Under the pieces are notes generated by a model that saw only the letters and a program-made list of their open reading frames with translations, was not told the DNA's origin and did not search any database. The position numbers were made by a program, and so were the translations under genes. From Candidatus Latescibacterota bacterium (lineage in GTDB: Bacteria > Latescibacterota > UBA2968): DNA of 64,000 bases. The stretch spans positions 352,001 to 416,000 of the forward strand of contig OZ241986.1 of assembly GCA_965204375.1 (NCBI GenBank). The letters run 5' to 3'. Shown here piece by piece: positions 12,013-49,952 of this stretch. How positions within the stretch are numbered: position 1 is the stretch's first letter; every line of letters starts with the position of its first letter.

Positions 12013-13041
12013 ATGCAAAAATTGTCCCGTGATTCTACAATTCTCACCACCACAGTTGGGTCTTATCCGCTGCCCGACTGGCTCGTGGCAGCACCGAGTG
12101 AAACCGCTGTTGTGGATGCCACGCGCGTTATCTTCGATACGCAGCGTCAGGCTGGAATTGATCTGCCTACCGATGGCGAACTCTACCGATTTGACATCAA
12201 CCATCCCGAGACCAATGGCATGATCGAATATTTTGTGCGCCCTATGGGCGGTACGCGCGTCGATTTTGGGCGTACTGAGGTCGAGACATTTCGTCAACGA
12301 CAATCCATGGACTTTCGCGCCAAACCCGCTGCTGTTGTCGATGACGCGCTCTCAGAGGGGGCACTCGACCTGTTATCCGACTGTTTGCGTGCAGCAACCG
12401 TCGCAGGTGGTTCCTTCAAATTTACGCTTACCAGCCCCTATATGCTTGCCCGCACCTTGCTCGACAACTACTACGGAGATTTTGAAGCCCTGCTCATGGG
12501 GGTGGCCGATGTGTTGGCCGATCAGGTGCGCGGCCTGCCATGCGCCTGTGTACAGGTCGATGAAGCCAATATTCCGGGTAATCCCGAGGACGGGCCTATC
12601 GCAGCGAAGGCGATTAATAGAGTACTCGACGCGGTCGATCCCGATACTGAGAAAGCTGTTCACTTTTGTTTTGGAAATTACGGTGGGCAAACCATCCAAC
12701 GCGGCACCTGGCGCGCGCTTATTGATTTCCTCAACAATCTGCACACCGATCACCTCGTTCTCGAACTCGCCCATCGCCCTGATGATGATCTGGTTGCTCT
12801 GAAAGAAATTGATCCGCGCATCAAACTCGGCATTGGCGTGGTCGATATCAAAATTAATCACGTTGAAACTGCCGAACAGATTGCCCGACGCCTCGATTAC
12901 GCCGAAAAAGAACTCGGCCCGGGGCGCATCGCATTTATTCATCCCGATTGCGGGTTCTGGATGCTCAAACGCTCGGTGGCAGACCAAAAAATCGTAGCCC
13001 TCGCGCAAGGCAGAGATCTTTATTTGGGAAGGGTGAAGTGA
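12013..13041 (+). CDS. Cobalamin-independent methionine synthase catalytic-domain-only protein (MetE C-terminal family)
   Basis: TTTVGSYP.P, TDGE, VQVDE, Zn ligands HFC..., LELA and HPDCG. About 340 aa, with no N-terminal folate-binding half. Confidence 0.82.
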   Translation: MQKLSRDSTILTTTVGSYPLPDWLVAAPSETAVVDATRVIFDTQRQAGIDLPTDGELYRFDINHPETNGMIEYFVRPMGGTRVDFGRTEVETFRQRQSMDFRAKPAAVVDDALSEGALDLLSDCLRAATVAGGSFKFTLTSPYMLARTLLDNYYGDFEALLMGVADVLADQVRGLPCACVQVDEANIPGNPEDGPIAAKAINRVLDAVDPDTEKAVHFCFGNYGGQTIQRGTWRALIDFLNNLHTDHLVLELAHRPDDDLVALKEIDPRIKLGIGVVDIKINHVETAEQIARRLDYAEKELGPGRIAFIHPDCGFWMLKRSVADQKIVALAQGRDLYLGRVK

Positions 13042-13063
13042 GAAGGGTGAAGTGAGAGGGTGG
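13029..13063 (+). repeat. Heptamer tandem array AAGGGTG/AAGTGAG at a gene end
   Basis: AAGGGTG AAGTGAG AAGGGTG AAGTGAG AGGGTGG, spanning the stop codon. Confidence 0.8.
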
Positions 13064-13130
13064 TCAACTACAGCATAGGCAGTCATGCTCGAATGACTCG
13101 CCTTCATATCCCATTCCGTACATTCTATAC

Positions 13131-16100: not shown

Positions 16101-17828
16101 CGAGAAATTACAGGAGGTGCTTCCTTTTTATCGCAGGATGTGCTCTTGCCCACATTTGGTGTGGGCAAAGCCGAAAAAATCGAAGTGCTCTCCCTGCGCT
16201 GGCCCAGTGGTATTGTACAGCAATTTCGCAGTGATAGAGACGATTTATCGGTCAATCGCGTTATAGATATTACCGAAAAACCCTCCCTGCCCCCTGCTCG
16301 CGTTCTTTTGTTTGCAGACGCGGCCAATTTGCTGGCCAATGGTATCTCCGAAATTGAACTCACCGCACAGATCGTCACAATAGACAACAGACCTTTGCCC
16401 ACCAGCGATCAGGCGGTTAAATTCCGCATAGAGAGCGGTAGTGGTCTCATCATTTCTTCTCAGAGGTCCGAAGCCGCCGGAGATTCCGTCGCGGTGCGCG
16501 ATGGCGTGGCGTATGCGCGTTTTCGAGCAGGTCGAGACCATGGGCGCGTTGTCATGGTTGCCGAAAGTGCGGGTCTGGAATCCGGGCGCGTTGAGATAGA
16601 ACTCCTCAAACCTTTTGGAGAAGATGCCCTGACCATTCGCACTATCGCCGGTTCGGGCGATGAGGTCGGTGGGTTTCAAGGCGATGGCGGCGCAGCTATT
16701 GAGGCACTTCTTCAGCGACCACAAGGCGTATTGGTCGATCCGTTGGGCAATATTTATATTGCGGATACAGAGAATCACCGCATTCGCTTTGTGAGTGTGG
16801 AAACAGGTATTATCCAGACTATTGCAGGGACAGGATATGCGGAAGATATTAATATGCCTCGAGGTATGGTTCTTCAGGGCGATTTGCTCATCAGTCAGAT
16901 GGGCAATCACGTTGTGAGCACGGTGCAGGATGAGGTGTTGTTCGCCTTTGCAGGAATTGGAATTGGTCAGTTTGGAGGCGATGGGGGGCGTGCTTTGGAC
17001 GCCAATTTGAGAAGTCCTGCAGGGCTTGCCATTGACTCGCGAGGGAATGTCTATATCGCCGATACGGATAATCACCGCATTCGCAAAGTCGATGCCAATG
17101 GTATTATTACAACTATTGTAGGCAGCGGCGATCCGGATCAGGGCGCATTTTTGGGCGATGGTGGTGCGGCCACACAGGCGCGCTTAAATCGCCCCAGTGC
17201 GGTTGCTATTGACGCGCATGACAATATTTATATTGCGGATACGGATAATCACCGCATTCGCAAAGTCGATTCCAATGGTATTATTACGACCATTGTGGGA
17301 ATGGGAATTGGAGGATTTTCTGGCGATGGTGGTGCGGCCACACAGGCGCAACTTAATTCTCCAAAGGGTATTGCCGTTGATACACAAGGATATCTTTTTA
17401 TTGCCGATACGAATAATCATCGCATTCGCTTGCTCGATTTGAATAGCGGCTTGATCCAGACTGTGGCGGGCACGGGGTCGGGACAACTCGATTTCGAAGA
17501 AGGCAGTGCCCTCGCCGGAAGTCTCAATGCCCCACATGGTTTGGCTCTTAGTCCAACTGGCACCCTGTTAATTGCGGATGCAGCAAATCACAGAATACGA
17601 GAACTGTCTGTTCTCTTTGATTTGGCTTTTGCATTGCCTGCTGTTCCACAGGCAAAAGCCTTCGATTTCAATGCCGATGGTCGGTTCGATTTCGACGATT
17701 TTCGGATCTTTGTCAACGCTTTTGACTCCGCCGATATGCGCTTTGATCTCAATGCCGATGGTCGGGTTGGGTTCGACGATTTTTTACAATTTGCCAGGGT
17801 TTATGAAGTGAGAAGTGAGATGCCATGA
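13131..17828 (+). CDS. Large secreted repeat protein: NHL propeller, 2 choice-of-anchor-D/ASH Ig-like domains, FG-GAP/VCBS propeller + ASPIC/UnbV, Ig-like domain, NHL propeller, EF-hand/dockerin-like tail
   Basis: Signal peptide; repeated GNIYIADTDNHRIR and GDGG.A units; repeated WGDFDNDGDLDLYV and NRLYRNDG units; DAIGTR...GG.SFLSQ...FGVG...WPSG (UnbV); C-terminal DFNADGRFDFDDF...FDLNADGRVGFDDFLQF. Confidence 0.88.
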   Translation: MRYIYIFFCIFLISEAGVFAQTRGAIVTIAGGGLEDGDNVLATDVVLNRPLGIALDTRGNLYIADTDNHRIRRVDAITGIITTVAGTGEPGFSGDGGPATMALLNTPNAIAVDSAGNIYISSGGASESDVHNRRIRRIDAFGIITTVAGTGEGGFNDLVPALQATFHEIVALTMLGDIALLISDSLDENGQGNNRVRQFNLANNTIGTIAGNGSAQTSSIQDGGLATRAGLTPGQLAVTGNGDLLIADFNNGRIRRISRATRDTTVVVVINTVAGRGATSAENLSEDLYKGDGGPATGALFFSPSGVAIDGAGNIYIGDTGNNRIRVVETETGNVLTIAGTGVAGEGSEGTLGLLSDLGQPTHLLIDGNGDLIFIDAFNNRIRKLRDPAFRMPLFNAISTDIIFGRVSVGDPAVRHLRVENRGNLSVRIEAAISDNPGFRVLSELPFEVGIAQIAELEIVFDPVQTGVARGVITITTNDSRIPSATVNVQGWGDAANIGLFPSDVLIFDRTSIGQSQTLSVRISNLGAGVLVVPNATTTDSQFVVEQTDVLRIESGQSQRLPIIFRPQSEDLQQAVLTIFSNAPGTPAVRLQLRGIGQSAQPGGFVDVAPNMGLGDTGAGFGAAWADFDNDNDPDFYLVRSREPNRLYRNDGTGFTDIAPALGIDDSGDGSAGIWGDVDGDGDLDLYVTNFGESNRLYRNDGVRFTDIATTFGVDGSGDGYGAAWADYDRDGDLDLYVANFGANRFYRNDGNGFSERADSLGIGDIESGIQPAWGDFDNDGDPDLFLANSGPNRLFRNDGEQFTSVENIFSPVDTGPSFGATWGDFDNDGDLDLFIPYFGADNRFYINEDNGVFRDRAPEMMLNHDGRGRGAVWGDFDSDGFLDLYVTNSGQPNLYYQNEDGLFVEMSDSLGVALNADSRGVALADYDNDGKLDLYVAVQDGPDALFRNREADGNWIAIRLRGTDSSTDAIGTRLKIEFKDGDGNNRQAIREITGGASFLSQDVLLPTFGVGKAEKIEVLSLRWPSGIVQQFRSDRDDLSVNRVIDITEKPSLPPARVLLFADAANLLANGISEIELTAQIVTIDNRPLPTSDQAVKFRIESGSGLIISSQRSEAAGDSVAVRDGVAYARFRAGRDHGRVVMVAESAGLESGRVEIELLKPFGEDALTIRTIAGSGDEVGGFQGDGGAAIEALLQRPQGVLVDPLGNIYIADTENHRIRFVSVETGIIQTIAGTGYAEDINMPRGMVLQGDLLISQMGNHVVSTVQDEVLFAFAGIGIGQFGGDGGRALDANLRSPAGLAIDSRGNVYIADTDNHRIRKVDANGIITTIVGSGDPDQGAFLGDGGAATQARLNRPSAVAIDAHDNIYIADTDNHRIRKVDSNGIITTIVGMGIGGFSGDGGAATQAQLNSPKGIAVDTQGYLFIADTNNHRIRLLDLNSGLIQTVAGTGSGQLDFEEGSALAGSLNAPHGLALSPTGTLLIADAANHRIRELSVLFDLAFALPAVPQAKAFDFNADGRFDFDDFRIFVNAFDSADMRFDLNADGRVGFDDFLQFARVYEVRSEMP

Positions 17829-19803: not shown

Positions 19804-21978
19804 TTACAACAAATTTCCCTGGACGGGTTCTTCGACAATTCCAACTCGAATGCGCTGGGCCAGGTTTGTGTGTCGTTCTGCAACCCGATTGTTGCGAACA
19901 GCCATCCCCAAGGCTTGTTTTGTGCCTACCAGCACGACCAGTTCTCGCGCCCGCGTAATGGCTGTGTACAACAAGTTGCGCTGTAACATCATATAGTGTT
20001 GCGTGGTCAAAGGCATTACCACGGCACGAAATTCTGCACCCTGGCTCTTGTGGACACTCATGGCATATGCCAGTACCAACTCGTCTAATTCCGAAAACTC
20101 GTATTCTATGACGCGGTCCTGAAACCGCACGCGCAATATATCATCCTCTATGCCCTGAACGCGCCCAATATCCCCATTAAAAACATCGCGGTCATAGTTA
20201 TTTCGCACCTGCATCACTTTGTCGCCTATCCGAAATCGGATACCGCCTCGCGTCATTTCCTGTCCTTTGGGATTTAACTCGTCTTGCAGGACATGGTTGA
20301 GATTGTTTGCGCCGGTCTCTCCGCGATACATCGGCACGAGTACTTGAATATCTTCAATACTGTCCAACCGATATGTGCGCGGCAAACGTGCAGCACACAA
20401 TCCACAAACCATCTCGACGACGTGATCGGGTTCCGAAACTTCGAGAAAAAAGAAATCCGCATCGCGATCATTCCGCACGTATGGCATTTCGCCGCGGTTG
20501 ATCGCGTGAGCATTGGTAACAATATGGCTCGTTTGTGCCTGTCGAAAGATTTCGTTGAGTTCCACGACTTCTACAATGCCAGACGCAATTACATCCTTCA
20601 ATACATTCCCCGCGCCAACCGATGGCAACTGATCGACATCGCCCACCAGGACTACCGAAGCGCTGATTGGAACAGCGCGCAATAGGCTGTTCATCAGAAC
20701 CGTATCGACCATGGATATTTCATCGACAATCAGAGCTTCGATCTCCAGGGGGTTCTCAAAATTTTTCTCAAACGCCATTTCAGACGGGCTAAATTTCAGC
20801 AATCTGTGGATAGTTTTTGCCTCATATCCTGTCGCCTCAGACATTCGCTTGGCTGCGCGTCCCGTTGGTGCTGCCAAGGCGATTTTTTTGTTTCGCGCCT
20901 CTAAAAGTGCGATCAGCCCTTTAATGGTTGTTGTTTTACCCGTTCCCGGGCCACCGGTCAATACCAGCAAATTGTGCGATAATGCTTTTTTCAATGCCAA
21001 TTTTTGACGGGGCGCGAATGTGACCCCGTCGCGCTGTTCTATGGCTCTGATCTCCGCTGGGATATTGCCCAGTTCAATGCGTTGCACTTGAGATAATTGA
21101 TAGCACCGCGTTGCCGCGCCCTGTTCGGCATAGTACAAATGCGGCAAATACACCCGCTCGTCATCGACGACTATCGATTCTTCGGAGAGCAATTGCGCCA
21201 CGCACGGTGGGATTGCATCGACGGGGACATCAAGTGCTTCGGCACACGATTCAATGAGCGCGTCTGCGGGCAAGAAAACATGCCCTTCTTTGTCTGCGGC
21301 TTCATTGAGTACATGCAAAAGACCGGCCTGAATGCGCCGGTTTGAATGTGCGGGTATGCCCATTTTTTGCGCGATGCGGTCTGCCGTCAAAAATCCAATC
21401 CCCCAAACATCTACCGATAGGCGATAGGGATTTTCTTGAATCAATTCAACGGCTTCATGCCCGTACCGCTTCCATATTTTTACGGCGTATCCCGTGCCCA
21501 CTTCGTGCGATTGCAAGAATAGCATTACATTGTGAATCTCGCGCTGGTCTTCCCAGGCTTTGATAATCCACTTTGCGCGTTTGGTCCCCAGTCCCTCGAC
21601 TTCGACCAGTCGTTTGGGATCTCTTTCAATGACATCGAGCGCTTCTTTGCCAAAGTGATTCACAATCCGCTTTGCCGTGACGGGTCCGATGCCTTTGATC
21701 AATCCCGAACCCAAATACCGCCGCATTCCCTCTACTGTAGATGGATGCACGGTCTGGTAGGATTCAATTTTGAACTGTGCGCCATATTGCTTATGGGTTG
21801 TCCATTCGCCTTCCAAAATCACGGTCTCGCCCGGGTTGATCGACAGCATTTCGCCCACAATGGTCGCCAGACGGTTGTTGTGTGCGGTGGATCCCTCTAC
21901 CTGCAAACGGGCAACCGTGTATCCATTCTCTTCGTTTTGAAATGTAATGCGATCTACAATTCCGCGAAGCTGAGCCAT
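19804..21978 (-). CDS. recD2: ATP-dependent RecD2-type DNA helicase
   Basis: N-terminal YG.QF / GLIKGIGP HhH region; TGGPGTGKTT, APTGRAAKR, VDEISM, VGDVDQLPSVGAG and AYAMSVHKSQGAEF motifs. Confidence 0.95.
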   Translation of the reverse strand: MAQLRGIVDRITFQNEENGYTVARLQVEGSTAHNNRLATIVGEMLSINPGETVILEGEWTTHKQYGAQFKIESYQTVHPSTVEGMRRYLGSGLIKGIGPVTAKRIVNHFGKEALDVIERDPKRLVEVEGLGTKRAKWIIKAWEDQREIHNVMLFLQSHEVGTGYAVKIWKRYGHEAVELIQENPYRLSVDVWGIGFLTADRIAQKMGIPAHSNRRIQAGLLHVLNEAADKEGHVFLPADALIESCAEALDVPVDAIPPCVAQLLSEESIVVDDERVYLPHLYYAEQGAATRCYQLSQVQRIELGNIPAEIRAIEQRDGVTFAPRQKLALKKALSHNLLVLTGGPGTGKTTTIKGLIALLEARNKKIALAAPTGRAAKRMSEATGYEAKTIHRLLKFSPSEMAFEKNFENPLEIEALIVDEISMVDTVLMNSLLRAVPISASVVLVGDVDQLPSVGAGNVLKDVIASGIVEVVELNEIFRQAQTSHIVTNAHAINRGEMPYVRNDRDADFFFLEVSEPDHVVEMVCGLCAARLPRTYRLDSIEDIQVLVPMYRGETGANNLNHVLQDELNPKGQEMTRGGIRFRIGDKVMQVRNNYDRDVFNGDIGRVQGIEDDILRVRFQDRVIEYEFSELDELVLAYAMSVHKSQGAEFRAVVMPLTTQHYMMLQRNLLYTAITRARELVVLVGTKQALGMAVRNNRVAERHTNLAQRIRVGIVEEPVQGNLL

Positions 21979-22247: not shown

Positions 22248-22510
22248 GGTACACGAGATGGTTGCCCTCGGGCCAACCATGTCACAAATTGAAATTTTCC
22301 TGAAAAACAAAAAGCACCTACCCGTCCCTCCACCAAATCGCCAAATTCGACGTAAGGAACAAGCAGGTGCCTCGTGGACTGGTATGGCAACGCTGCTGAA
22401 ACGCTGTGCGTTCCGAAAATATTGTTTTTTTCACAGGCCAGTCGGCGGAAAATATAGCCAATCTCATATTCGAGGTCAAGGTCAAAGACGAAAAAAAAGG
22501 GAGAGATGAA

Positions 22511-23128
22511 ATGAAGCGGTTTACTACCGTTATTTTGCTCGGCTTGATATGGACGGCTCATGCGGAAGAAGATCGCAAGACGATTTTGTTTTTGGGGGAT
22601 AGCCTGACCGCGGGTTATGGCCTGGATAAAACGCAGGCTTTTCCCACGTTGATTCAGGCAAAGATCGATTCGCTCGGGTGGACGTTTGATGTGGTTAATG
22701 GCGGACTGAGTGGCGAAACATCGGCAGGAGGGTTACGGCGGGTCAACTGGTTGCTGCGGCGAAAAATCGATGTGCTGTTGCTGGCATTGGGGGGCAACGA
22801 TGGCTTGCGGGGGATTCCCACGGCTGAAATGCAGCAAAATTTGCAGGGGATTATAGATCTCGCAAAAGAGAAATATCCAGATATTCAGATCATACTTATG
22901 GGTATTGAAGCACCACCGAATTTGGGAGATGCATATACGACGGCTTTCCGCGCAGTGTTCCCGGCTCTATCTGAAAAGAATCGCGTGCCTTTGATACCCT
23001 TTTTGTTAGAAGGGGTTGGCGGGATTCCCGAACTGAATCTGCCAGACCGCATTCATCCCAATGCTGCGGGACATCGGATTATCGCAGAAACCGTGTGGCG
23101 CATACTTAAACCGGCATTAAAAAAGTAA
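22511..23128 (+). CDS. Arylesterase / acyl-CoA thioesterase (TesA-like SGNH hydrolase)
   Basis: Signal peptide, GDSLTAGYG, NGGLSGETS, LGGNDGLRG and DRIHPN motifs. Confidence 0.92.
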   Translation: MKRFTTVILLGLIWTAHAEEDRKTILFLGDSLTAGYGLDKTQAFPTLIQAKIDSLGWTFDVVNGGLSGETSAGGLRRVNWLLRRKIDVLLLALGGNDGLRGIPTAEMQQNLQGIIDLAKEKYPDIQIILMGIEAPPNLGDAYTTAFRAVFPALSEKNRVPLIPFLLEGVGGIPELNLPDRIHPNAAGHRIIAETVWRILKPALKK

Positions 23129-23162
23129 GAAGTGAGAAAAAAGAGAAAGGAAGAATGTGAAA

Positions 23163-23249
23163 ATGGATTTGCCAGAACGACCATTTGAGAATGAATACAT
23201 CGCCATACTGACCAGCATCATCAAAAAAATGCAAAGCAAACAACTCTAA
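23163..23249 (+). pseudogene. 28-aa mini-ORF, probable internally deleted four-helix-bundle (23S rRNA IVP/bAvd-like) gene
   Basis: MDLPERPFE + NEYIAILTSIIKKMQSKQL resembles the N- and C-termini of four-helix-bundle proteins. It is flanked by inverted heptamer arrays. Confidence 0.55.
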
Positions 23250-23265
23250 CTTCACACTTCCTCCT

Positions 23266-25827
23266 TTACACTTCGCCTCGCAATATTTCGAGTGGTGGTC
23301 GGTCGGCGATGCCGCGACTGTTGAGCATGCCGACTAAGATGGTGAGCGCGGTGACGAGGGCAAAGACGCCGACAATGGCCGCAGTGGGCAGGGCAAAGTG
23401 GATGTCGAAAATAAAGACGGTGACAGCCCAGGCACCGCCAATAGAGAGTATGAGTCCCGTCAGGGTAGCGAGTGCGCCCAGAAAGGTGTATTCCAGCAAG
23501 AGTATGCGGCGAATCTGTTTTTGAGATGCGCCCAAAGTACGCAGCAAAACGGCTTCTTGAATGCGCTGATAGCGGCTGGTGGTGACTGCGGCAGTTAGTA
23601 CAATGAGTCCGGTAATCACACTAAAGAGTGCCATGAAGCGCACGACAAAGGCGATTTGTGAGAGTACATCGTCAACGGTTTTGAGAATGAGACCGAGGTC
23701 AACAGCCGATACATTGGGGTATTGTTGTACCAGTGTGCGTTGCAATACAGCGGATTGTCCGGTTGTGTTTATGCGCGTGGTCAAGACGTGAAACTGCGGA
23801 GCGGTTTCGAGTACGCCTTTGGGAAAGACGATAAAAAAGTTTGGCTGGATGCGCTGCCAGTCAACTTCTCGCAGGCTTTGTACTGTGGTCTGAATGGGCA
23901 CGCCCTGGACGTCGAAGGTCAGGGTATCGCCGAGCGAGACGCGAAGCGAGCGGGCAATGTCGCGCTCAAAAGAAATGGGGATGGGTTCTTCGGTCCGTTC
24001 TGTATCGATCCAGGTGCCGCCTACGAGGCGTTCTGAATCGAAGAGGTGATTGCGATAGGTCGAGCGGTATTCGCGTTGTATTGCCCAGCGCCGCACGTCG
24101 TGTATTCTGCCGTAGGAACGCGCCTCTTGACCTTTGATGCTCTTCAGACGCATGGTGACGATGGAGGCATGGTGAATGACGGGCAGATTCTGTTTGCGGA
24201 GTAACGCGCTTACGCCTTCAATCTGATCGGTTTGCACATCGACGAGCACAAAGTTGGGGCGGTTGTCGCTCCCCGCGATGGCAATTTGAGCGAGCAAGGC
24301 GTGTTGCACAATATAGAGCGTGGTGATGAGAAAGGTGCCGAGGCCCAATGCGAGCATGAGAATTACGGTCTGATTGTGTGGACGGTAGAGGTTGGCCAGG
24401 CCCTGTCGCCACACGTATTGCCAGGTTGTGGGAAAGAAGCGGCGAACGGTTTTGATGATGAGCCACGATGCGCCTATGAGGAGTCCAAAGGCAATGCCAA
24501 ACCCGATGGCAATGCCAATTCCAATGAGGATACTACTGGTTTGCACAATGCCCAATCCCGCGACAATGAGACAGATCCCGCCGATGGTCATCAGTTGTAG
24601 GGGGTCTATTTGGGATCGCGCGTTTTCAAAAGATGCCCGCAAGGTGTGTAGGGGTGATGTGCGGCGAATAGGCAACAGGGGGAGCAATGCAAAGAGTAGC
24701 GACAGACTCAGGCCAATGCCGGTACCTTGAATGATCGCCCAATAGGAAAACTGAATATCGAGTTCAATAGGCAGAATTTGTGCGAGAACACCGGGCAGGA
24801 GATACTGAATGCCCATACCGAGGAGAGAACCGCAGCCCGTGCCAATAAGACCCAGCGCGATAGCCTGGATGGCGTAAATGCAGAGGATCTGATTCGATTG
24901 CGCACCCATGCAGCGCAGGATGGCGACGGTTGTTATTTTTTGGCGCGTATAAACGTGAATGGCACTGGCAACGCCGATACATCCGAGTAAGAGGGCGGCA
25001 AAGGCGACAAGACTGAGGAAGATATAGAGATTATCCAATATGCGATTGAGGCGTCTTTGACGGCTGGCAACGGTTTCGGTACGCAAATTTTGATCCCCGC
25101 GGTAGGGGCGAAGCTCGCGCTGGATGGATCCGATTCTCGTGCTGCTATCAAACTTAAAATAGGCCGCATAAGACGCCAGACTGCCAAATTTGATGAGGCC
25201 CGTTTTATCGAGATGCGATAAGGGGATGTACACACGCGGTGCAACTGTGGCAAAGGCCATAGCCTCGCCCGATATTTTTGTGATGCGTCCGCCTATGACA
25301 AAGGTGTGGTTGCCAATTCGCACAGAATCGCCGACCTGAACCCCAAATTGGATGAGCAAGCCATCGTCGAGTAGCGCGTGATGGGTATGCTGAAAGGTCT
25401 TCGACGCTTGTAGTGGATTGGTTTCAAATGTGCCGTAATAGGGAAAGTCGCCTTGTAGTGCACGCACCTGTACCAGGCGGGTGCCGCCGTTTTTGGGAAA
25501 GAAGACCATCGAGGCAAAGCGCACTTCTCTGGATTGCTCCCCACCCCATGAGTTGAATAGGGAGTCAACCGCAGGGGCAAAAGCACGCTGGCTGCTGACG
25601 CGCAAATCAGCACCTAAAAGTGTGCGCGCTTCGTTTTCGACAACGCGTTGCAGGTTATCGCCCAGAGCGCGAACGGCCACGAGGCCACCCACGCCGAGCA
25701 ATATACAGGAAATAAAGAGTAGCAATCGGTGGCGATACGTGCGACTATCGCGCCAGGCCATGCGCCAGGTCCATGCGTTGAAGAGTGGGCTGGAGGTCTG
25801 ATTTTTAATGCTGGTGATTCGATCCAT
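23266..25827 (-). CDS. ABC transporter permease, YbbP-like (double FtsX)
   Basis: MAWRD.R, LLGADL, FPYYG, AILRCMGA, PNF.LVDVQ.DQ and E..LLRTLGAS motifs. Confidence 0.9.
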   Translation of the reverse strand: MDRITSIKNQTSSPLFNAWTWRMAWRDSRTYRHRLLLFISCILLGVGGLVAVRALGDNLQRVVENEARTLLGADLRVSSQRAFAPAVDSLFNSWGGEQSREVRFASMVFFPKNGGTRLVQVRALQGDFPYYGTFETNPLQASKTFQHTHHALLDDGLLIQFGVQVGDSVRIGNHTFVIGGRITKISGEAMAFATVAPRVYIPLSHLDKTGLIKFGSLASYAAYFKFDSSTRIGSIQRELRPYRGDQNLRTETVASRQRRLNRILDNLYIFLSLVAFAALLLGCIGVASAIHVYTRQKITTVAILRCMGAQSNQILCIYAIQAIALGLIGTGCGSLLGMGIQYLLPGVLAQILPIELDIQFSYWAIIQGTGIGLSLSLLFALLPLLPIRRTSPLHTLRASFENARSQIDPLQLMTIGGICLIVAGLGIVQTSSILIGIGIAIGFGIAFGLLIGASWLIIKTVRRFFPTTWQYVWRQGLANLYRPHNQTVILMLALGLGTFLITTLYIVQHALLAQIAIAGSDNRPNFVLVDVQTDQIEGVSALLRKQNLPVIHHASIVTMRLKSIKGQEARSYGRIHDVRRWAIQREYRSTYRNHLFDSERLVGGTWIDTERTEEPIPISFERDIARSLRVSLGDTLTFDVQGVPIQTTVQSLREVDWQRIQPNFFIVFPKGVLETAPQFHVLTTRINTTGQSAVLQRTLVQQYPNVSAVDLGLILKTVDDVLSQIAFVVRFMALFSVITGLIVLTAAVTTSRYQRIQEAVLLRTLGASQKQIRRILLLEYTFLGALATLTGLILSIGGAWAVTVFIFDIHFALPTAAIVGVFALVTALTILVGMLNSRGIADRPPLEILRGEV

Positions 25828-25895
25828 GAGGCAAATTAAAAATTAGGAATGGGGGCTGTTTGGGTGGACTGACCACTGATTTTGGGTGGCGGGGT

Positions 25896-25930
25896 ATCCT
25901 GTTCATCCTTTAATCCTGCACATCCTGATC
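25896..25930 (+). repeat. Degenerate 9-mer tandem array (ATCCTGxxC)
   Basis: ATCCTGTTC ATCCTTTA ATCCTGCAC ATCCTGATC; the opposite strand encodes the DQDVQD* tail of the ATPase. Confidence 0.7.
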
Positions 25931-26599
25931 CACTTTGCCACCTTGCAGGTGGATGATGCGCTGCGTGCGTGCGGCGATATCGTGATCGTGCGTGACGAGG
26001 ATGAGGGTTGTGCCCGCTTCGCGGTTGAGGTCAAAGAGCAGATTGGCGATGGTATGACTGCTGTCGGCGTCGAGGTTGCCCGTAGGCTCGTCGGCAAATA
26101 AGATGCGCGGTTGGTTGATAAAGGCGCGTGCAATGCCCACGCGCTGTTGTTCGCCACCCGAAAGCTGAGCGGGATAATGCGTCAAGCGGTCGCCCAATCC
26201 CACGCGGTCGAGCAATTCTCTCGCTTCGCCAAACACACCGTTTTTACCGCGTAGTTCGAGGGGAACCGCGACATTTTCAATGGCGGTGAGGGTGGGGATG
26301 AGTTGAAAGCTCTGAAAGACAAAGCCCACGTATTCATTTCGCACGGCTGCGCGTTGGTCTTCGTCGAGGCTGTCGAAGGCCATGCTGTGAAGGGTGACAG
26401 TGCCCGATGTTGGGCGATCAAGGCCGGCACATAATCCGAGTAGCGTGGTTTTTCCACTGCCCGAGGGTCCTACTATCGCACAGGTTTGGCCTTTGGGTAT
26501 GGTGAACGTGACGTTGTCTAAAACGGTGAGCGAATGTCCCCCGCTCGTGTAGGTGCGGGTGAGGTTTTGAACTGCGAGTGCTGTGTTTGAATGGCTCAA
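25910..26599 (-). CDS. ABC transporter ATP-binding protein, YbbA/LolD-like
   Basis: [26 protein letters not shown] and VTHD motifs. Confidence 0.93.
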
Positions 26600-27883: not shown

Positions 27884-27884
27884 A

Positions 27885-31864: not shown

Positions 31865-32713
31865 ATGGACACACCATATCGCACCATCGACGTGAAACCT
31901 CTATCTGGAGCACTCGGCGCTGAAATTGAAGGCGTTGACATTGCGTCGGAGACCGGTGAGGAACAATTCGCTGAAATCTATCGGGCCTTTGCAGATTACA
32001 GCGTGATTCTCTTTCGCAATCAGTCCCTCACACAGGAACAACACATTGCATTTGCCCGACGCTGGGGAGATATCAATGTCAACCGATTTTTTACGGGCGT
32101 AGCGGAAAATCCCCTCATCGCCGAGGTACGAAAAGAACCCGATCAGGAAACCAATATTGGGCGCAACTGGCATACCGATCATTCTTACGATACCATTCCC
32201 GCACTCGGCTCGATTCTTTACGCACGCGAAGTTCCCGAGTTTGGTGGTGATACGATGTTTTCCAGTATGTACAGAGCGTATGAAACCCTCTCGCCGGGGT
32301 TGCGGAAAACGCTCGAAAACTTAAATGCCCTGCATTCCAGCCGACATGTTTTTGGAGCGATGAACGGCAGAAAGCCCGATAAAAGCGGTCGTATTGGCAA
32401 TCCCGAACTCGCCACCCAGGATGCTGTCCATCCCATAATCATAAGGCACCCTATCTCAGGTCGCAAAGCACTTTACGTAAATCCCGTGTTCACCGTTCAA
32501 ATTGAGGGATGGAAAAAAGAAGAATCCCAATCTTTGCTTCAGTATTTGTACCAGCACGCTTCCCAACCGGATTTTACATGCCGCATCCGCTGGAAAAAAG
32601 ATACGCTCGCTATTTGGGACAACCGCGCGACCTGGCATTGCGCGCTCAATGATTATCAGGGACAGCGACGCCTCATGCACCGCATCACGATTGAAGGTGT
32701 GCCGTTGAATTAA
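31865..32713 (+). CDS. TauD/TfdA family Fe(II)/2-oxoglutarate dioxygenase
   Basis: LGAEIEGVD, WHTD, GGDT and WDNRATWH...R motifs. Confidence 0.93.
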   Translation: MDTPYRTIDVKPLSGALGAEIEGVDIASETGEEQFAEIYRAFADYSVILFRNQSLTQEQHIAFARRWGDINVNRFFTGVAENPLIAEVRKEPDQETNIGRNWHTDHSYDTIPALGSILYAREVPEFGGDTMFSSMYRAYETLSPGLRKTLENLNALHSSRHVFGAMNGRKPDKSGRIGNPELATQDAVHPIIIRHPISGRKALYVNPVFTVQIEGWKKEESQSLLQYLYQHASQPDFTCRIRWKKDTLAIWDNRATWHCALNDYQGQRRLMHRITIEGVPLN

Positions 32714-32732
32714 AAATTAGGAGAACCCATCG

Positions 32733-35742: not shown

Positions 35743-37104
35743 TTGGCTAACGGTCAACTCTTACACCTGCTAACCGCCCGCGCCGAGTCTAAAAATCCCC
35801 TTCGCGTGGGCCTTATCGGTGCTGGAAAGTTCGGCACCATGTTCCTGGCTCAAGCCCGTCGCGTTGCGGGGTTGCACGTTCTGGGTGTGGCTGATCTATC
35901 CCTGAATCGGGCGCGTGAAGCCCTCACGCGTGCTGAGTGGCCGCCCGAACAATTTGCCGCAACCCACTTTGATCACGCCCTCAAAACCGGCGCCACCCAT
36001 CTTACCGATGACAGCGATGCCCTCATCCAGGCGGACGGTCTGGACGTTCTGGTCGAAGCCACGGGCAATCCTCTCGCAGGCATCCACCACGCCCTTCAAG
36101 CCATCGAATACGGACGCCACCTGGTCATGGTAAATGTGGAAGCAGACGTCCTGGTCGGTCCCATCCTGGCCCAACGTGCAGCATCTGCAGGCCTCGTGTA
36201 CTCCCTCGCCTATGGCGACCAACCCGCTCTGATCTGTGAACTGGTGGAATGGGCTAAGACCAATGGCTTGGACATTGTCTGCGCCGGCAAAGGCACCAAA
36301 TACCGGCCCGCGTACCACACATCTACCCCTGATACTGTATGGGAACACTATGGTTTTGATGCTGAAACCGCTGCAAAAGGCGGTCTGAACCCCCGTATGT
36401 TCAACTCCTTTTTGGACGGTACAAAATCCGCCATTGAAATGGCCGCTGTCTCAAATGCCACTGGCCTGAATCCCCAGCCCGAAGGCCTGAAATTCCCGCC
36501 CTGCGGCATTGACCAGCTATCCGATATTTGCCGGCCTCATAGCGACGGGGGACAACTTTCCCACAAAGGAACCGTCGAAGTCGTCTCCAGCCTGCAACCA
36601 GACGGAACCCCTGTAGATCGGGATCTGCGCTGGGGTGTTTACGTCACCATCGAAGCCCCTGGCGACTACATCCGCCGCTGCTTCTCCGAATACGGCCTTC
36701 CCACTGATTCCACGGGACGTTACACGGCCATCTATCGCCCCTACCACCTGGTTGGCATGGAACTCACCACCAGTGTCTTGCGCGCTGGCTTGCGCGGCGA
36801 AGCCAGCGGCGCACCTGTTGTTTTTAATGCAGACGTTGTTGCCACTGCAAAACGCGATCTCTCCCAGGGAGAAGTCCTGGACGGCGAAGGCGGATATTGC
36901 GTGTACGGCAAACTCAGGCCGGCTGATCAAGCTCTTATGTCTAACACCCTGCCCATCGGTCTGGCTCACAATCTCAAGCTGAAACACAAAATCGCCGCGG
37001 GGCAACCCATACGCCAATCCGACGTTGAATTGGACGAAAACAACGCCATTCTCCGCCTCCGCCGGGAAATGGTACAACGCTTTGCGGAACCTCTGCGCCG
37101 TTAA
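35743..37104 (+). CDS. NAD(P)-dependent oxidoreductase, homoserine-dehydrogenase-like with C-terminal SAF domain (COG4091-type)
   Basis: GLIGAGKFG, MVNVEAD, YGDQPA, FNSFLDGTKSAIEM, YRPYHL and AKRDL..GE.LDGEGGY motifs. Confidence 0.9.
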   Translation: MANGQLLHLLTARAESKNPLRVGLIGAGKFGTMFLAQARRVAGLHVLGVADLSLNRAREALTRAEWPPEQFAATHFDHALKTGATHLTDDSDALIQADGLDVLVEATGNPLAGIHHALQAIEYGRHLVMVNVEADVLVGPILAQRAASAGLVYSLAYGDQPALICELVEWAKTNGLDIVCAGKGTKYRPAYHTSTPDTVWEHYGFDAETAAKGGLNPRMFNSFLDGTKSAIEMAAVSNATGLNPQPEGLKFPPCGIDQLSDICRPHSDGGQLSHKGTVEVVSSLQPDGTPVDRDLRWGVYVTIEAPGDYIRRCFSEYGLPTDSTGRYTAIYRPYHLVGMELTTSVLRAGLRGEASGAPVVFNADVVATAKRDLSQGEVLDGEGGYCVYGKLRPADQALMSNTLPIGLAHNLKLKHKIAAGQPIRQSDVELDENNAILRLRREMVQRFAEPLRR

Positions 37105-37132
37105 ATTAAAAATTAGGAAAGGGAGCAAAACA

Positions 37133-37453
37133 ATGAACAATGAACAATCGCTTTTGCCACCGAAAATTTCATTTTTTGAAAAACGATTGACAATAATTCT
37201 TGCTCGAGATGATGCGATGGTATGCGCTTTCTGTCCCGAATTGGATTTGGTGACTGAAATGGCAACGCCCGATGAAGCACTGGAAGATATGCTGGAAGCC
37301 ATGCAGGATTATGCTGAGGAATATTTAGAGGACTTAGAAATTTATCAAAACAGTCCCAATTGCGCCCATCATTTGCCTTATATCCAGGCGATTGCTGAGT
37401 GTAAAGATGTCTGGGATATAGGAGAACCCCTCGATGGCATCCATAACCTTTAA
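37133..37453 (+). CDS. HicB-like antitoxin-fold small protein, possibly C-terminally truncated
   Basis: AFCPELDLVTEMATPDEALEDMLEAMQDY is a HicB-type motif. The last codons are read from the dapA copy 2 leader. No hicA is nearby. Confidence 0.65.
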   Translation: MNNEQSLLPPKISFFEKRLTIILARDDAMVCAFCPELDLVTEMATPDEALEDMLEAMQDYAEEYLEDLEIYQNSPNCAHHLPYIQAIAECKDVWDIGEPLDGIHNL

Positions 37454-38688: not shown

Positions 38689-40399
38689 CCTGAAAAATTC
38701 ATAAAAAAGGTAGTTTCCTTATTCAAGTTATTGTATTATTATAGGTTATGGCAATAACCATTGAACAATAAACTTGGAGGAAACTACCGTGGGTTCCCAA
38801 GATAATCATCACAAGGTTCCTTTGGCAAGCATTTTCGGCAAACGTGTCAATATCGCCTTTGATGGGGGCATCCTCACCAGTGATAGCGGCGCCTTATTGC
38901 TTCGAGAGGTGGAGGCCAGATCAGGTCTATTAGCACGCATCGGTGATGCCATCACGGATCGCCGGCATAAAAGTTATGTGGCTCATCGTGTGGCAGAGTT
39001 GATTAAACAGCGCGTGTTCCAGATTGCCTGCGGGTATGAAGATGCCAATGATTGCAATGCCTTACGCAGTGATCCCGGCATCAAGGCTGCCTGTGGTGTC
39101 TTGCCCCTTTCAGGTGCCGACTTAGCCAGTCAACCGACGATGAGTCGTTTTGAGAACCAGATCAGGCGAAGCGAGTTGTATCGCATTGCCTGTGCCTTCC
39201 TCGATTGTTTTATCGCCTCTTATGCCCAGCCCCCTGCTGCGATTATCTTAGATATCGATGATACACAGGATACAGTTTATGGGACACAGCAGTTGTCCCT
39301 ATTCAATGGGTATTTGGGTGCCTATTGCTATCAGCCCTTGCACATTTATGAAGGACAAACCGGCAAGTTGATCACCACAGTTTTGCGTCCCGGTGTGCGA
39401 CCAACAGGCCAACAGATTGTCGCCATACTCAAGCGTTTGGTGGCCTATCTGCGTCAGGCTTGGCCTGATGTGGCGATCATCTTGCGGGGTGATGCCCACT
39501 TTTCTTGTCCACAAGTCCATCAGTTGTGTGCCGATAGTGACCTGTATTTTATCCTTGGACAGACCAGCAATGCGAAGTTGAGACAGTTGGCAAAGCCCCT
39601 GATTGAGCAGGCGAAAAGGCTTTATGCACATACAAAGAAGCCTGTGCGTCTTTTTACCTCGTTTTGCTATCAAGCAAAGAGTTGGAACAAGGCACAACGC
39701 ATCGTATGCAAGGTAGAAATCAGTGACCGAGGCCAAAACACCCGCTTTGTCGTGACCAACCTTGAAAGTTCACAAGCCTCCTTTATCTACCAAAGCGTGT
39801 ATTGTGCGCGCGGACAGATGGAAAACTTCATTAAAAATCACAAAACCTTTCTCCACTCTGACCGCACATCCTGTCACAGCTTTACTGCCAATCAGTTCCG
39901 TCTCTTCCTCCATTCGGCTGCCTATGTCCTGATACAGACATTGGCGCAAATCGGATTGAAAGGCACAACGTGGACAAACGCGCAGGTCAATACCATACAA
40001 AATCGCTTTCTCAAAGTCGCCGGACGCATCTGTGAATTGAAAACGAAGATTACGTTCCATTTGCCTGCGTCCTTTCCAGTGCAACATCTGTATCATAAAA
40101 TCCTACACAATCTGGCAAAGGCTTTCCCCTAACGCAAAATACGGGGGAGGGGAGGCAGACACCATCACTTGCTGACTGGACACGACACATACACCGCCTT
40201 GTGCAAAGACGCGGCAGGCAAGGGGCGTGTCTGTCCTTTTTGCCAACCACAGGCACGCACACCCGATGAAATGGACCAAACAGACCCCTGTAAAGACCCA
40301 ATCGAGTCCGACAAGAACAGAAAAACAATGAACGAGAGCTTGGAACACCGAAATGATTACATAATTATCCTATTCTTCAACTTTCATGAATTAGTCGGG
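38689..40399 (+). mobile_element. IS1380-family insertion sequence (1711 bp)
   Basis: IRL CCTGAAAAATTCATAAAA, IRR (reverse complement) CCCGACTAATTCATGAAA, and a 4-bp target duplication CTAA at 38685-38688 and 40400-40403. Confidence 0.93.
38789..40132 (+). CDS. IS1380-family DDE transposase
   Basis: FDGG.LTSDSG, GYEDAND...LR.DP, LASQPTMSRFEN, LDIDDT, LRGDAHF and YCARGQMENFIK motifs; GTG start after GGAGG. Confidence 0.95.
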   Translation: MGSQDNHHKVPLASIFGKRVNIAFDGGILTSDSGALLLREVEARSGLLARIGDAITDRRHKSYVAHRVAELIKQRVFQIACGYEDANDCNALRSDPGIKAACGVLPLSGADLASQPTMSRFENQIRRSELYRIACAFLDCFIASYAQPPAAIILDIDDTQDTVYGTQQLSLFNGYLGAYCYQPLHIYEGQTGKLITTVLRPGVRPTGQQIVAILKRLVAYLRQAWPDVAIILRGDAHFSCPQVHQLCADSDLYFILGQTSNAKLRQLAKPLIEQAKRLYAHTKKPVRLFTSFCYQAKSWNKAQRIVCKVEISDRGQNTRFVVTNLESSQASFIYQSVYCARGQMENFIKNHKTFLHSDRTSCHSFTANQFRLFLHSAAYVLIQTLAQIGLKGTTWTNAQVNTIQNRFLKVAGRICELKTKITFHLPASFPVQHLYHKILHNLAKAFP

Positions 40400-40556
40400 C
40401 TAAATCTATTATCAACGCGTCGTCCAATACGAGAATAAGAACTTCTTCTAGCCACGAGAGAACCCCCTTTTCAAATTTTATGTCGTCAATCAATCTGCAC
40501 ATTTTCACGGTTGAATCTGCTGTCTCCAATTTACATTGGAGCCTCTAATATTTCAA

Positions 40557-48590: not shown

Positions 48591-48808
48591 GGCAATATCT
48601 GTTATTACAAGGTGAAAGATGGTGTTGTGCAGGAATAGGCAATGTACGTTGGTCAGGGAAGGGCGTCAAGCGGTTGTGGCGTGTTGAATCTTGCCAATAG
48701 TGAAAGACGGTCTGCGTTGACAATGTGTAAGGTGTTGTGTTATTTATGTGGTCAGATTTACTGGCGTTGTAATGCTGGGTTGATCGTTAACTTAATCGAG
48801 GAGGCAAA

Positions 48809-49894
48809 ATGGCAGATAAATTGAAGGTGGGTATTGTCGGAGTAGGAGGTATTGCGCGGACGCATATTCCGGGTTGGCAGGCTTCGGAACATGCCGAATT
48901 GGTGGCTGGAAGCGATATTAGCGAAGATGTGTTGAAGGATTGGGGTGAACAATACGGGATCAAAAAACTGTATGTAAATCCGGAAGATTTGTTTGCCGAT
49001 CCAGAGATAGATATTGTGGATGTGTGTACACCAAATAATTATCACGCGCCTCTATCTATTGGCGCGCTGGATGCGGGTAAACACGTGATTTGTGAAAAAC
49101 CTCTGGCACCCAGTCCTCAATTGGTGAAAGATATGATTGCTGCGCGCGACTCGTCGGGCAAGTTGTTGATGTGCGCGCAGTCGTCGCGGTTTGCGGGATC
49201 ATCTCTGGCGATGAAGCGGGAATTGGATACCGGGGTGTTGGGAAATGTGTATCACGCGCGGTGCTGGATGTTGCGGCGGTCGGGTGTGCCCGCGCGGCCG
49301 GGTTTTATTATGAAAAAACACAGTGGTGGCGGGCCGTGTATTGATATTGGCGTTCACGTTTTGGATTTGACGCTGTGGTTGATGGGCAATCCCAATCCCG
49401 TAGCTGTAACGGGGGTGGCGAAGGCGGAGTTGGCACATCAGGAGGGTGCTTTCAGTACGATGGGGCGCAGTGGTGGCGCGATTCCCGAAGAGTTTGATGT
49501 GGAGGATTTTGCAGCGGCTTTTGTGCGGTTTGAAAATGGGGCTTCCCTTATTCTGGAGACGAGCTGGATGTTGCATCAAGGTCCCCCGTCAGAACGGCAA
49601 ATATGGCTTTACGGCACAAAGGGTGGGGCACACTTGCCCAGTTGTGAGATTTATTATTCGGATTCCAATACGCAGCAACATCACAAATACGCATTGCAAG
49701 ATACGGGCGATATCGCCAGAGCACACGCGCTGGAATGCATGACGTTTGCCGAGGCGATTACAGAGGGCAAACCGTCGCCAGTGCCGGCTGAACAGTCGCT
49801 ACAGGTGATGGCGATTTTGGATGGGATTTATCGCAGTGAAGAGGAAGGGCAGGAAGTGGATATAGCGCGAGATGCAAAAATAATTAAGAATTAA
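48809..49894 (+). CDS. Gfo/Idh/MocA family oxidoreductase
   Basis: GIVGVGGIA, GKHVICEKP and GGGPCIDIGVH motifs. Confidence 0.93.
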   Translation: MADKLKVGIVGVGGIARTHIPGWQASEHAELVAGSDISEDVLKDWGEQYGIKKLYVNPEDLFADPEIDIVDVCTPNNYHAPLSIGALDAGKHVICEKPLAPSPQLVKDMIAARDSSGKLLMCAQSSRFAGSSLAMKRELDTGVLGNVYHARCWMLRRSGVPARPGFIMKKHSGGGPCIDIGVHVLDLTLWLMGNPNPVAVTGVAKAELAHQEGAFSTMGRSGGAIPEEFDVEDFAAAFVRFENGASLILETSWMLHQGPPSERQIWLYGTKGGAHLPSCEIYYSDSNTQQHHKYALQDTGDIARAHALECMTFAEAITEGKPSPVPAEQSLQVMAILDGIYRSEEEGQEVDIARDAKIIKN

Positions 49895-49952
49895 GAATTG
49901 GCCCCGCCCCGCCTTTCCAATTTTTAATTTCTAATTTTTAATTCCTAATTGA
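49882..49952. repeat. Inverted pair of heptamer arrays between convergent genes
   Basis: AATTAAG AATTAAG AATTGGC, a GC spacer, then CAATTTT TAATTTC TAATTTT TAATTCC TAATTGA. Confidence 0.8.

Follow-up and report, generated by a model that had tools for sequence, protein, structure and literature searches.

Stop-lined heptamer arrays at variable gene junctions belong to a hairpin-forming repeat family of one Candidatus Latescibacterota genus

Introduction

A 64,000-nt stretch of a Candidatus Latescibacterota genome, referred to here as the window, carries short tandem arrays of heptamers such as GAAGTGA that sit at the very ends of otherwise ordinary genes, and the question raised by this locus is whether such arrays are borders between which small genes are exchanged or pieces of something else. 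A first-pass annotation of the window had proposed that the arrays delimit exchangeable micro-cassettes gained and lost by an integrase-free mechanism or, failing that, are footprints of an uncharacterised mobile element. All of the sequences quoted in that annotation are present, exactly or 1-2 nt from the positions given. The window is G000:C1:352001-416000 of the reference genome G000, a single contig of 6,340,849 bp with 50.8% GC, a completeness of 95.98% and a coding share of 88.8% as judged by our own crude open reading frame (ORF) caller, which supplied the gene calls throughout. Here we describe the arrays as parts of a repeat family found across one genus, and we argue that this family is probably a small, non-coding, hairpin-forming element for which small genes are by-products.

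The Latescibacterota are uncultured, and we found no description of the intergenic repeats of this phylum: literature searches on Latescibacter intergenic repeats, extragenic palindromes and miniature inverted elements returned nothing relevant, and searches on heptanucleotide or short tandemly repeated repetitive sequences and on the 23S rRNA intervening-sequence four-helix bundle found no such elements.

Results

Defined as at least three GAAG words at a period of seven (GAAGNNN), 192 arrays are present in G000, 92 on one strand and 100 on the other, at 137 loci, 108 of which lie mostly outside called genes. The same period-7 count gives 0-6 for each of 12 control 4-mers, none of them a sub-word of the unit, and 13 for AATT, and the sequence GAAGTGAGAAG occurs 51 + 72 times against an expectation of 1.5 per strand. 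GAAGTGT is the commonest unit (498), followed by GAAGTGA (126), GAAGTAG (76), GAAGTAA (60) and GAAGTTA (58); Tandem Repeats Finder, run at a low score threshold, was swamped by matches to coding repeats and confirmed these commonest heptamers. The arrays follow a strict topology, with a purine-strand array followed by a pyrimidine-strand array within 70 nt in 60 cases and the opposite order in one; counted out to 500 nt, there are 54 plus-then-minus pairs and one minus-then-plus pair.

Alignment of the spacers revealed a conserved, asymmetric, C-rich core of ~38 nt, with a consensus of approximately GCCCCGCCCAACCACCCAAAGGCTGGTGCYTCATC, in 52 elements (orientation 32 vs 20). The full element is an imperfect palindrome of the form (GAAGTRA)n, core, (CTTCACA)n with each arm holding between 2 and 32 units, and both solo arms and an AT-type variant, (AATTAAG)n, occur beside the composites. 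The 52 composite elements have a median length of 88 nt and fold as long imperfect hairpins on both strands, with median folding energies of -24.5 and -32.6 kcal/mol and z values of ~-3.8 and -4.0 relative to 30 shuffles each. Such junctions also contain other repeat modules, with copy numbers in G000 as follows: GTAGGGGCR hairpins (138), AACTGG..CCAGTT hairpins (65), CATCTGC tandem repeats (117), GGATCGCGGC..GCCGCGAT hairpins (52 copies) and a dispersed 35-nt repeat (52 copies). Proximity was assessed with the first four of these families, the pattern for the 35-nt repeat having matched only 2 places; another module is found no more than 80 nt from 23 of the 137 array loci, compared with 5.7 +/- 2.2, and never more than 13, in 300 null runs. 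Array loci and the other modules form a mosaic of the kind known as bacterial interspersed mosaic elements (BIMEs). The array loci are also unevenly spread, with 29, 17 and 21 per 0.5 Mb across 4.0-5.5 Mb and 0-11 in the other bins, and these crowded bins fall on the side of the GC-skew minimum (5.19 Mb), which is the putative origin.

The sequence of the unit offers a framework for understanding why the arrays meet gene ends. Every unit carries TGA, TAA or TAG on its purine strand, and the complement (TCACTTC, ACACTTC) is stop-free. Because the period is seven and each unit holds a stop, three units place stops in all three frames and an inward-reading ORF ends within 21 nt; in the composite element both arms show their purine strand to ORFs reading inward. 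Arms lined with stops in this way can overlie gene 3' ends or take their place, and so seem to supply the last codons and the stop. The placement of the arrays at gene ends is indeed not random, as the first-pass annotation had maintained: in 91/192 arrays, a gene that reads the purine strand has its stop codon within the array or touching it, compared with 18.0 +/- 3.9 (maximum 30) in 200 runs of random placement within non-coding DNA, and no array holds the stop of a gene reading the opposite strand. Solo arrays between tandem genes are co-oriented with them in 45 cases and not in 14 (p 6.5e-5). The orientation of the core is unrelated to the neighbouring genes (anti/anti 18, co/co 15, convergent 11, divergent 8; n=52). 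Within the window, at junctions that we call sites A to D and G, repeat sequence encodes the tail peptides EVRSEMP*, KIIKN* and DQDVQD*, in agreement with the earlier claim that arrays supply last codons and stops. Relatives that are free of the element end otherwise at sites D and G, with DATVD* in place of DAKIIKN* at the latter. At site B, most of the relatives shown share the V-Y-E codons ahead of the tail and vary in the sequence after them, G015 reading VYE and then ELRIKN, and G005, G012, G018 and G009 reading VYEA/VYEV.

Comparison of orthologous junctions showed how rapidly these positions change. Sequence between conserved anchors was excised, from 14-17 genomes at the window sites, and borders were judged by eye. 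Across 14-18 species the junctions range from empty alleles of 18-50 nt to multi-hairpin mosaics of 100-390 nt, junctions A-D in the window have 10-15 distinct lengths across 14-17 genomes, and most of the fills are non-coding hairpin modules. The filled and empty alleles anticipated by the first-pass annotation were both found at three loci. The element at G000 position 4187780 is placed exactly between one gene's stop and the next gene's start; nine of 15 relatives are bare here, reading GGAAGAGGCGTGACATGG or a close variant of it over 18-24 nt, and the G000 junction is 116 nt longer. At 4194388 the element lies between CATA and TCACACC, where eight of 17 relatives hold 37-46 nt and the rest have fills of several kinds at one point. 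The third locus, site G, had been taken for an empty site on account of its short GC spacer at 49882 and turned out to be a filled one: nine of 14 relatives hold 27-33 nt (..GATGCAACCGTTGATTAA..), and G000 contains ~68 nt more. On a local tree of 18 genomes, built from 8,276 coding columns of one 15-kb region (G000 4,184,001-4,199,000; G011, G013 and G019 left out), the empty and filled states need at least six changes at 4194388, at least five of them forced by well-supported branches, and at least five (at least four forced) at 4187780. Clustering of the empty label on this tree is no better than in shuffles, 288/500 and 104/500 of which were as low at 4194388 and 4187780, respectively.

Control junctions in the same stretch are steadier than array junctions, yet not immune to change. 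Lengths fall within 170-173 nt in 14/16 genomes at 22014/22166, within 171-188 nt in 16/17 at 22246/22406, within 49-70 nt in 14/17 at 11995/11992, within 137-140 nt in 10/15 at 19703/19804, and at exactly 49 nt in 8/16 at 26599/26591; at 18448/18504, 12/16 genomes lie within 96-107 nt and four gained genes.

The repeat family extends across one Candidatus Latescibacterota genus. An 18-nt array pattern, GAAGTGAGAAGTRAGAAG, was found in 14/20 other genus genomes, in 1/4 from the rest of the family and in 0/16 from the sister family, with 0 matches everywhere for the reversed control; counts per genome run from 35 in G000 and 29 in G001 down to 0 in six genomes. A pattern spanning the arm-core junction matched 13 stretches in ~185,000 species genomes, 12 of them in Candidatus Latescibacterota/Latescibacteria metagenome-assembled genomes (MAGs) and one in a Limnocylindrales MAG. 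The suggestion that the arrays are mobile-element footprints fits these data, as the arrays are arms and solo pieces of a multi-copy, lineage-restricted family with clean filled and empty alleles.

Public sequencing runs, used only as Logan contigs and coded X2, X4, X6 and X8, add alleles from outside the assembled genomes. Runs X4 and X6, from two other studies, have their own alleles at sites A and D, and only X4 crosses site C, where this coral-labelled run carries G000's fill plus 14 nt (two units) at 23267 in the right arm. Contigs of the coral- and sponge-labelled runs X4, X6 and X8, one of them an RNA library, are 90-99% identical to the window, and the genus may be associated with animal hosts. 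The X8 RNA contigs end at 23059 and restart at 23273, and a DNA contig from the same sample spans site C; this is one study and possibly an assembly break, and no inference is drawn from it.

The individual window sites illustrate the mosaic at higher resolution, in a region that is syntenic across most genus genomes with 85-94% identity in the flanking genes. The ORFs around the sites are MetE-like, a giant NHL/FG-GAP protein, Sua5, a GDSL lipase, FtsX/ABC, TauD, DHDPS, a DRL oxidoreductase, GFO/IDH/MocA and purple acid phosphatases, that is, ordinary enzymes and transporters. The site A array (13028..13063, plus strand) alternates GAAGGGT and GAAGTGA, two of each, ahead of a partial unit, and it contains the TGA (13039-13041) of the MetE-like ORF 11992..13041. 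The orthologous junction measures 127-293 nt in 17 genomes, with arrays of varying length or none, and its spacer hairpin at 13078..13102 (GGCAGTCAT..ATGACTCGCC) is an indel between species, present in G000 and G004 and missing from G002, G005, G006 and G014, which read ..ataggcagttatatccc... Site B (17805..17819, plus strand) consists of two GAAGTGA units where the NHL/FG-GAP ORF ends and the overlapping Sua5/YrdC ORF starts, and it encodes ..EVRSEMP*; this junction spans 39-227 nt in 14 genomes, G015 having (GAATTAA)n in place of (GAAGTGA)2 and others having hairpin modules.

Site C lies between the convergent GDSL and FtsX genes. Its left arm (23123..23160, plus strand) is made of degenerate purine heptamers that hold the TAA of the GDSL-lipase ORF 22406..23128, and its right arm (23244..23278, minus strand) is made of CTTCACA-type units that hold the stop of the minus-strand FtsX-permease ORF 23266..25827. 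The junction measures 50-199 nt, with 15 distinct lengths in 17 genomes. The 50-nt form, with one unit per side (..GAAAAGAAGTGAgaaaaTCACACTTCGC..), occurs in G016, G007 and G008; G015 has a full composite element together with a 9-mer module, CATCTGCGT, and other modules occupy the site in G012, G005, G014 and G018. Of the 16 species compared, the 15 nearer ones have arms at site C, and both arms are missing from the most distant, G001. Site D (25834-25930) is a three-part mosaic of 62-338 nt across genomes. It begins with an AT-type arm (25834..25847, plus strand; units AATTAAA and AATTAGG), which comprises 2-5 AATTAAG/AATTAGG units in relatives, and continues with a 36-nt core-like insert (25848..25893; ..GCTGTTTGGGTGGACTGACCACTGATTTTGGGTGGC..) that resembles a reversed composite core. 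The insert is present in G000, G003, G004, G008 and G015 and absent from G005, G007, G010 and G014, which read AATGGGGAGGGGTATCC, and the short allele also appears in run X6. The third part (25896..25930), previously described as a 9-mer array, is instead one copy of the dispersed 35-nt repeat, whose 52 genome copies include 42 that are mostly intergenic; the minus-strand ABC-ATPase ORF 25910..26599 takes its TAA and the tail ..DQDVQD* from this copy, and all four runs show a depth spike and many loose contig ends at 25895/25929. The site G composite (49882..49952) reads (AATTAAG)n, GGCCCCGCCCCGCC and an inverse arm between convergent GFO/IDH/MocA and purple-acid-phosphatase ORFs, where it supplies ..KIIKN*; an unrelated two-hairpin module of 145-172 nt takes this place in G002, G007 and G014, and a 33-35-nt variant in two other genomes.

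Small genes do turn over at one array-bordered junction or more. An intact ORF of 126 aa at G000 4542418-4542795 matches the four-helix-bundle family PF05635 (E 1.3e-25) and occupies the usual position of the core, between four GAAGTNN units and at least 16 CTTCACA units. The collapsed four-helix-bundle ORF that the first-pass annotation had recognised at 23163 in site C was correctly identified: by tblastn, window 23154-23189 and 23190-23243 align to residues 8-19 and 108-125 of the intact ORF with 75% and 89% identity. This 23S_rRNA_IVP remnant (23154..23243, plus strand) retains residues ~8-19 and 108-125 and lacks ~264 nt of the interior; it is 85-87% identical to the intact copy, arm and leader included, and the left arm of site C aligns (85%) with G000 4542404-4542474, where the intact element has its left arm and leader. 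In other genomes the locus of the intact gene holds a PIN gene with an antitoxin-like ORF of 78 aa (G004, G016), the antitoxin-like ORF alone (G015, G006), two DUF488 ORFs (G020), a four-helix-bundle remnant (G009) or non-coding modules of 63-160 nt (G012, G013, G014, G018). The left border ..CTTGAA(GT) is common to 10/12 genomes, with CTTAAA in G013 and G018, and the right border in most is a CTTCACA-type array, often degenerate, ahead of the downstream ATG, with none in G018 and G009. The intact PF05635 gene is the only one in G000 and occurs in 2/21 genus genomes, G000 and G002; the two loci are orthologous and differ in arm length. Having one intact copy and one remnant in G000 and a presence in 2/21 genus genomes, the four-helix-bundle gene was ruled out as a general partner of the arrays. 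Among the arm pairs within 500 nt, 46/54 are <70 nt apart and eight are wider; of two wider pairs examined, the one spanning 407 nt has the intact four-helix-bundle gene inside it and the other (4194388, 70 nt) is non-coding, and the remaining six span 72-235 nt.

The 14-mer AATTAAAAATTAGG, reported as an identical junction sequence at 25834, 32708 and 37104, is present at all three positions (4 copies in the whole of G000, 3 of them in the window, with 0.02 per strand expected), but the three copies are heterogeneous, the first being the AT-type arm of site D and the other two being linkers with a stop and a Shine-Dalgarno sequence in one variable operon. The second copy (32708..32721, plus strand) links TauD (stop 32711-32713) to DHDPS-1 (ATG 32733) and supplies the stop and an AGGAG ribosome-binding site; TGAATTAAAGTTAGGAG precedes the DHDPS gene in relatives, and the TauD-DHDPS gap is 49 nt in G000, G014 and G018 and holds 1.3-6.6 kb of additional genes in ten relatives. 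The third copy (37104..37117, plus strand) leads from the stop of the DRL oxidoreductase (37102-37104) to an ORF of 100 aa (37133..37432, plus strand) that had been called HicB-like and in fact matches the PHD_like antitoxin family PF12910 (E 2e-17). This PHD-like ORF follows the DRL gene in eight genomes (G000, G003, G004, G010, G012, G016, G018, and G008 after a remnant) and is absent there in eight, with additional copies elsewhere in G016 and G020; the 14-mer precedes it in 3/8 carriers only (G000, G016, G018), the five others using different linkers. The DHDPS-family pair at 32718-33017 and 37419-37718 is 92% identical, and the duplicate begins after the 14-mer. Relatives hold a single DHDPS copy at either position, which indicates that the operon (31865-38354) has been rearranged between species; sulfatase-like and other genes are also found between TauD and DHDPS.

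Several known systems were considered as sources of the elements. PF01797, the profile for Y1 transposases and REP-associated tyrosine transposases (RAYTs; REP, repetitive extragenic palindrome), has 0 matches in G000 and matches in 6/14 control genomes, and RAYT/IS200 was rejected as the mobiliser. An integron was likewise rejected, as the best TIGR02249 match reached 88.6 bits relative to a cut-off of 265 and the matches look like generic tyrosine recombinases. The absence of an identifiable responsible enzyme reported in the first-pass annotation therefore persists for these profiles, with no PF01797 match and no IntI above the cut-off. The second DHDPS copy is closely followed by an insertion sequence (IS; window 38683-40406) that encodes a DDE_Tnp_1_4 transposase of 452 aa (PF13701, E 1.6e-154). 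Elsewhere in G000, four further copies are 100% identical to it and about ten are at 85-86%, and G006, G015 and G020 each have many at ~80-81%. This IS was rejected as a parent of the modules because its ends are unrelated to them. Rfam 15 gave 0 matches at E <= 0.1 over window 11000-52000. A terminator reading was also discarded: a consensus scan flags none of sites A-C and makes one weak 5-bp call at site D, its total of 20 sites compares with 16.1 +/- 3.9 in shuffles, and canonical terminators lie at other junctions. The elements are oriented relative to replication, the G-rich strand of the core being leading in 39/52 elements (p 4e-4; Fisher by replichore p 0.0015) and the purine strand of solo arrays in 60/85 (p 1.9e-4), which exceeds the prediction from gene orientation alone.

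Discussion

The anatomy, genus-wide distribution and junction alleles described here identify the arrays as a REP/BIME-like or short tandemly repeated repetitive (STRR)-like repeat system. We consider it fairly probable that they are parts of a small, non-coding, hairpin-forming repeat family of one Latescibacterota genus, with small genes as by-products. With similar and only slightly lesser confidence, we regard the family as selfish or neutral, with a lining of stops that makes it tolerable at gene ends, arms that slip and junctions that are fragile and prone to nesting. Arm length would shift through slipped-strand mispairing, and whole elements and other hairpin modules would be gained, nested, replaced and lost at the same tight junctions. 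The two-unit gain in the site C arm of X4 and the replichore orientation suggest replication-linked change driven by hairpins or slippage, and the process is probably tied to replication and single-stranded hairpins or to recombination between repeated arms. Small accessory genes occasionally caught between arms would be by-products of fragile junctions rather than the purpose of the system.

Several observations weigh against this reading. No mobilising enzyme was found, and the sole IS examined, that at 38683-40406, has end 60-mers that match only 17-18 places and resemble neither arms nor core. By eye, there is no clean target-site duplication or terminal inverted repeat at site G, 4187780 or 4194388, and transposition in the usual sense is therefore unsupported at these three comparisons. 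Insertion exactly between stop and start may reflect purifying selection, as the sole tolerated position, rather than targeting. Several of the fills at 4187780 have a common right end (..CCCTACGGAGACCTC..ATG), and part of the scatter on the tree may be due to allele exchange between lineages or shared ancestry, not repeated insertion. The array-free control junction 19703/19804 gained 12-111 nt in 5/15 genomes, the three largest gains (G008, G012, G018) carrying a GTAGGGGCG hairpin module, and 3/17 genomes exceed 150 nt at 11995/11992. The replichore bias could be ordinary G-over-C strand skew. Finally, RNAalifold gave no consensus structure for 46 aligned cores, six atypical members having been dropped beforehand.

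The alternative proposed at the outset, in which heptamer arms border an integrase-free swapping of small genes (four-helix-bundle, toxin-antitoxin, DUF488) at junctions, is in our judgement quite unlikely as a general account. It draws support from the intact PF05635 gene standing between (GAAGTNN)4 and (CTTCACA)16+ where the core normally lies, together with the second, collapsed copy at armed site C and the exchange of PIN/antitoxin, antitoxin, DUF488, remnant and non-coding contents between species at the intact-gene locus; the PHD-like gene that follows DRL in half of the 16 genomes adds a further small accessory gene that comes and goes. Turnover of small genes at one or more array-bordered loci is accordingly real, and the first-pass proposal is not to be set aside entirely. 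As a description of what the arrays generally do, it is improbable: most fills are non-coding, 46/54 arm pairs are <70 nt apart, with one of the two wider pairs examined enclosing an intact gene, the single PF05635 gene of G000 is confined to one orthologous locus in two genus genomes, the 14-mer marks a minority of PHD-like junctions, and no tandem cassette arrays were seen alongside an IntI score far below its cut-off. Toxin-antitoxin and other small accessory genes, moreover, often vary at hot spots that have no special borders. One possible route for such exchange is gene conversion in which the arms, being repeated, provide portable homology and, being rich in stops, insulate neighbouring ORFs. 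A stronger form, in which the arms are portable borders and arm-to-arm conversion copies a core, a module or a small gene between armed junctions, independently of an enzyme or by an unknown one, seems to us improbable to the same degree; if true, the arms would guarantee that both neighbouring ORFs terminate, and the replichore bias would mark a hairpin-dependent step at the replication fork.

A functional reading, in which the hairpins are kept by selection as 3'-end stabilisers, attenuators, translational-coupling devices or protein-binding sites on DNA, is doubtful, and we rate it as unlikely. The positions of the elements at gene 3' ends and, within operons, between stop and start would suit it, as would stable hairpins on both strands and a modest enrichment between convergent genes (11/52 vs 11.5% of all junctions), and REP sequences have been tied to mRNA stabilisation and to the binding of Pol I, gyrase and IHF (PMC5317091). 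Set against this are the independence of core orientation from the direction of neighbouring genes, the lack of a T-run after the hairpins, with sites A-C not terminator-like and canonical terminators nearby, the absence of Rfam matches at the threshold given above and of a consensus core structure, and the emptiness of the same junction in about half of close relatives, which implies that no element is required at any single site. Chance low-complexity sequence or an assembly artefact might be entertained on the grounds that the units are short and purine-rich and that some window copies (23123-23160) are degenerate, but we give it almost no credence. The enrichment is ~30- to 80-fold or more over expectation and control words, the core is conserved and the arm topology strict, the array pattern recurs in 15/24 related genomes, and X4 and X6 contigs from two other studies span some of the same junctions.

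The repeat family thus favoured invites comparison with known systems. Like REP/BIME sequences (REPIN-RAYT), the elements are short, imperfectly palindromic, multi-copy and extragenic, form mosaics, lie after genes or between convergent genes and vary between relatives (PMC5317091). The short palindromes, copy number and extragenic placement expected of REPs and REPINs are seen here, with 137 loci, 108 of them mostly outside called genes, and 52 composite palindromes at a hairpin z of ~-4. The Latescibacterota elements differ in that their asymmetric core is flanked by arms of tandem heptamer microsatellites, anywhere from 2 to 32 units long, and in a genome that has no Y1/RAYT gene. A strand or replication bias, as seen here, has been reported for single-strand transposition systems. 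Cyanobacterial STRRs are likewise tandem 7-bp intergenic units, hairpin-capable between the genes of operons, with several unit families per genome, and their function is not known (PMC2670836). The present repeats occur in another phylum, have other units (GAAGTGT, GAAGTGA and GAAGTAG among them), and form inverted array pairs around a conserved core with a stop codon in every unit. To our knowledge no such composite architecture has been described for STRRs, and the passages seen of PMC2670836 contain none either.

Miniature inverted-repeat transposable elements (MITEs) such as Correia/CREE, ERIC and RUP are small non-autonomous insertions with inverted ends that are present or absent between strains, lie near genes and sometimes alter gene ends. 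The presence/absence polymorphism at the orthologous sites 4187780, 4194388 and site G is shared with them; unlike MITEs, the elements show no target-site duplication in the three comparisons made by eye, and their ends are tandem arrays, not IS-like inverted repeats. Integron cassettes and their attC sites resemble the elements in placing an imperfect hairpin directly after a small promoterless ORF, with variable cargo that includes toxin-antitoxin and small unknown genes. Here, however, there is no IntI above the cut-off, the elements are dispersed singly or in small nests with no tandem ORF-attC array, and the arms appear, by eye, to lack attC core sites (R''/R').

The design of the element is unusual, with microsatellite arms that place stops in three frames around a conserved core, and it follows from these stops that the repeats can sit on gene ends and rewrite C-termini harmlessly. 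The elements mark the fastest-diverging junctions in genomes of this genus, which is represented in coral- and sponge-labelled runs. Element-derived C-terminal tails and broken assemblies are to be expected at array sites during annotation, and the arrays could be used as strain-typing markers. Should the arms prove to move small genes, they would constitute a cassette system without an integrase.

Other features of the window

Several features of the window lie apart from the repeat family. A low-GC island at 27885-29988 (37% vs ~51%) has ORFs for a Bpu10I-family restriction endonuclease and an N6/N4 DNA methylase and is probably an acquired restriction-modification system. At 22166-22246 there is an 80-nt stretch with TTGACA at its start and a GC-rich hairpin and T-run at its end; it is ~90% conserved, recurs once more at another place in almost all genus genomes (2546309-2546386 in G000), and gave neither a tRNA in an ARAGORN search of 21900-22500 nor an Rfam match, and it may be a small RNA or a leader. 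Two coding regions vary in copy number. A contig of run X2, elsewhere identical to the window, lacks 177 nt at 17060-17238 in the NHL-repeat region of the 1565-aa ORF, a gap equal to one repeat spacing (family D1), so that the number of NHL repeats differs between close strains. The tandem purple-acid-phosphatase paralogues at 49953-52613 are 92% identical over the 300 nt compared, and three overlapping matches in succession in some relatives indicate that their copy number varies as well.

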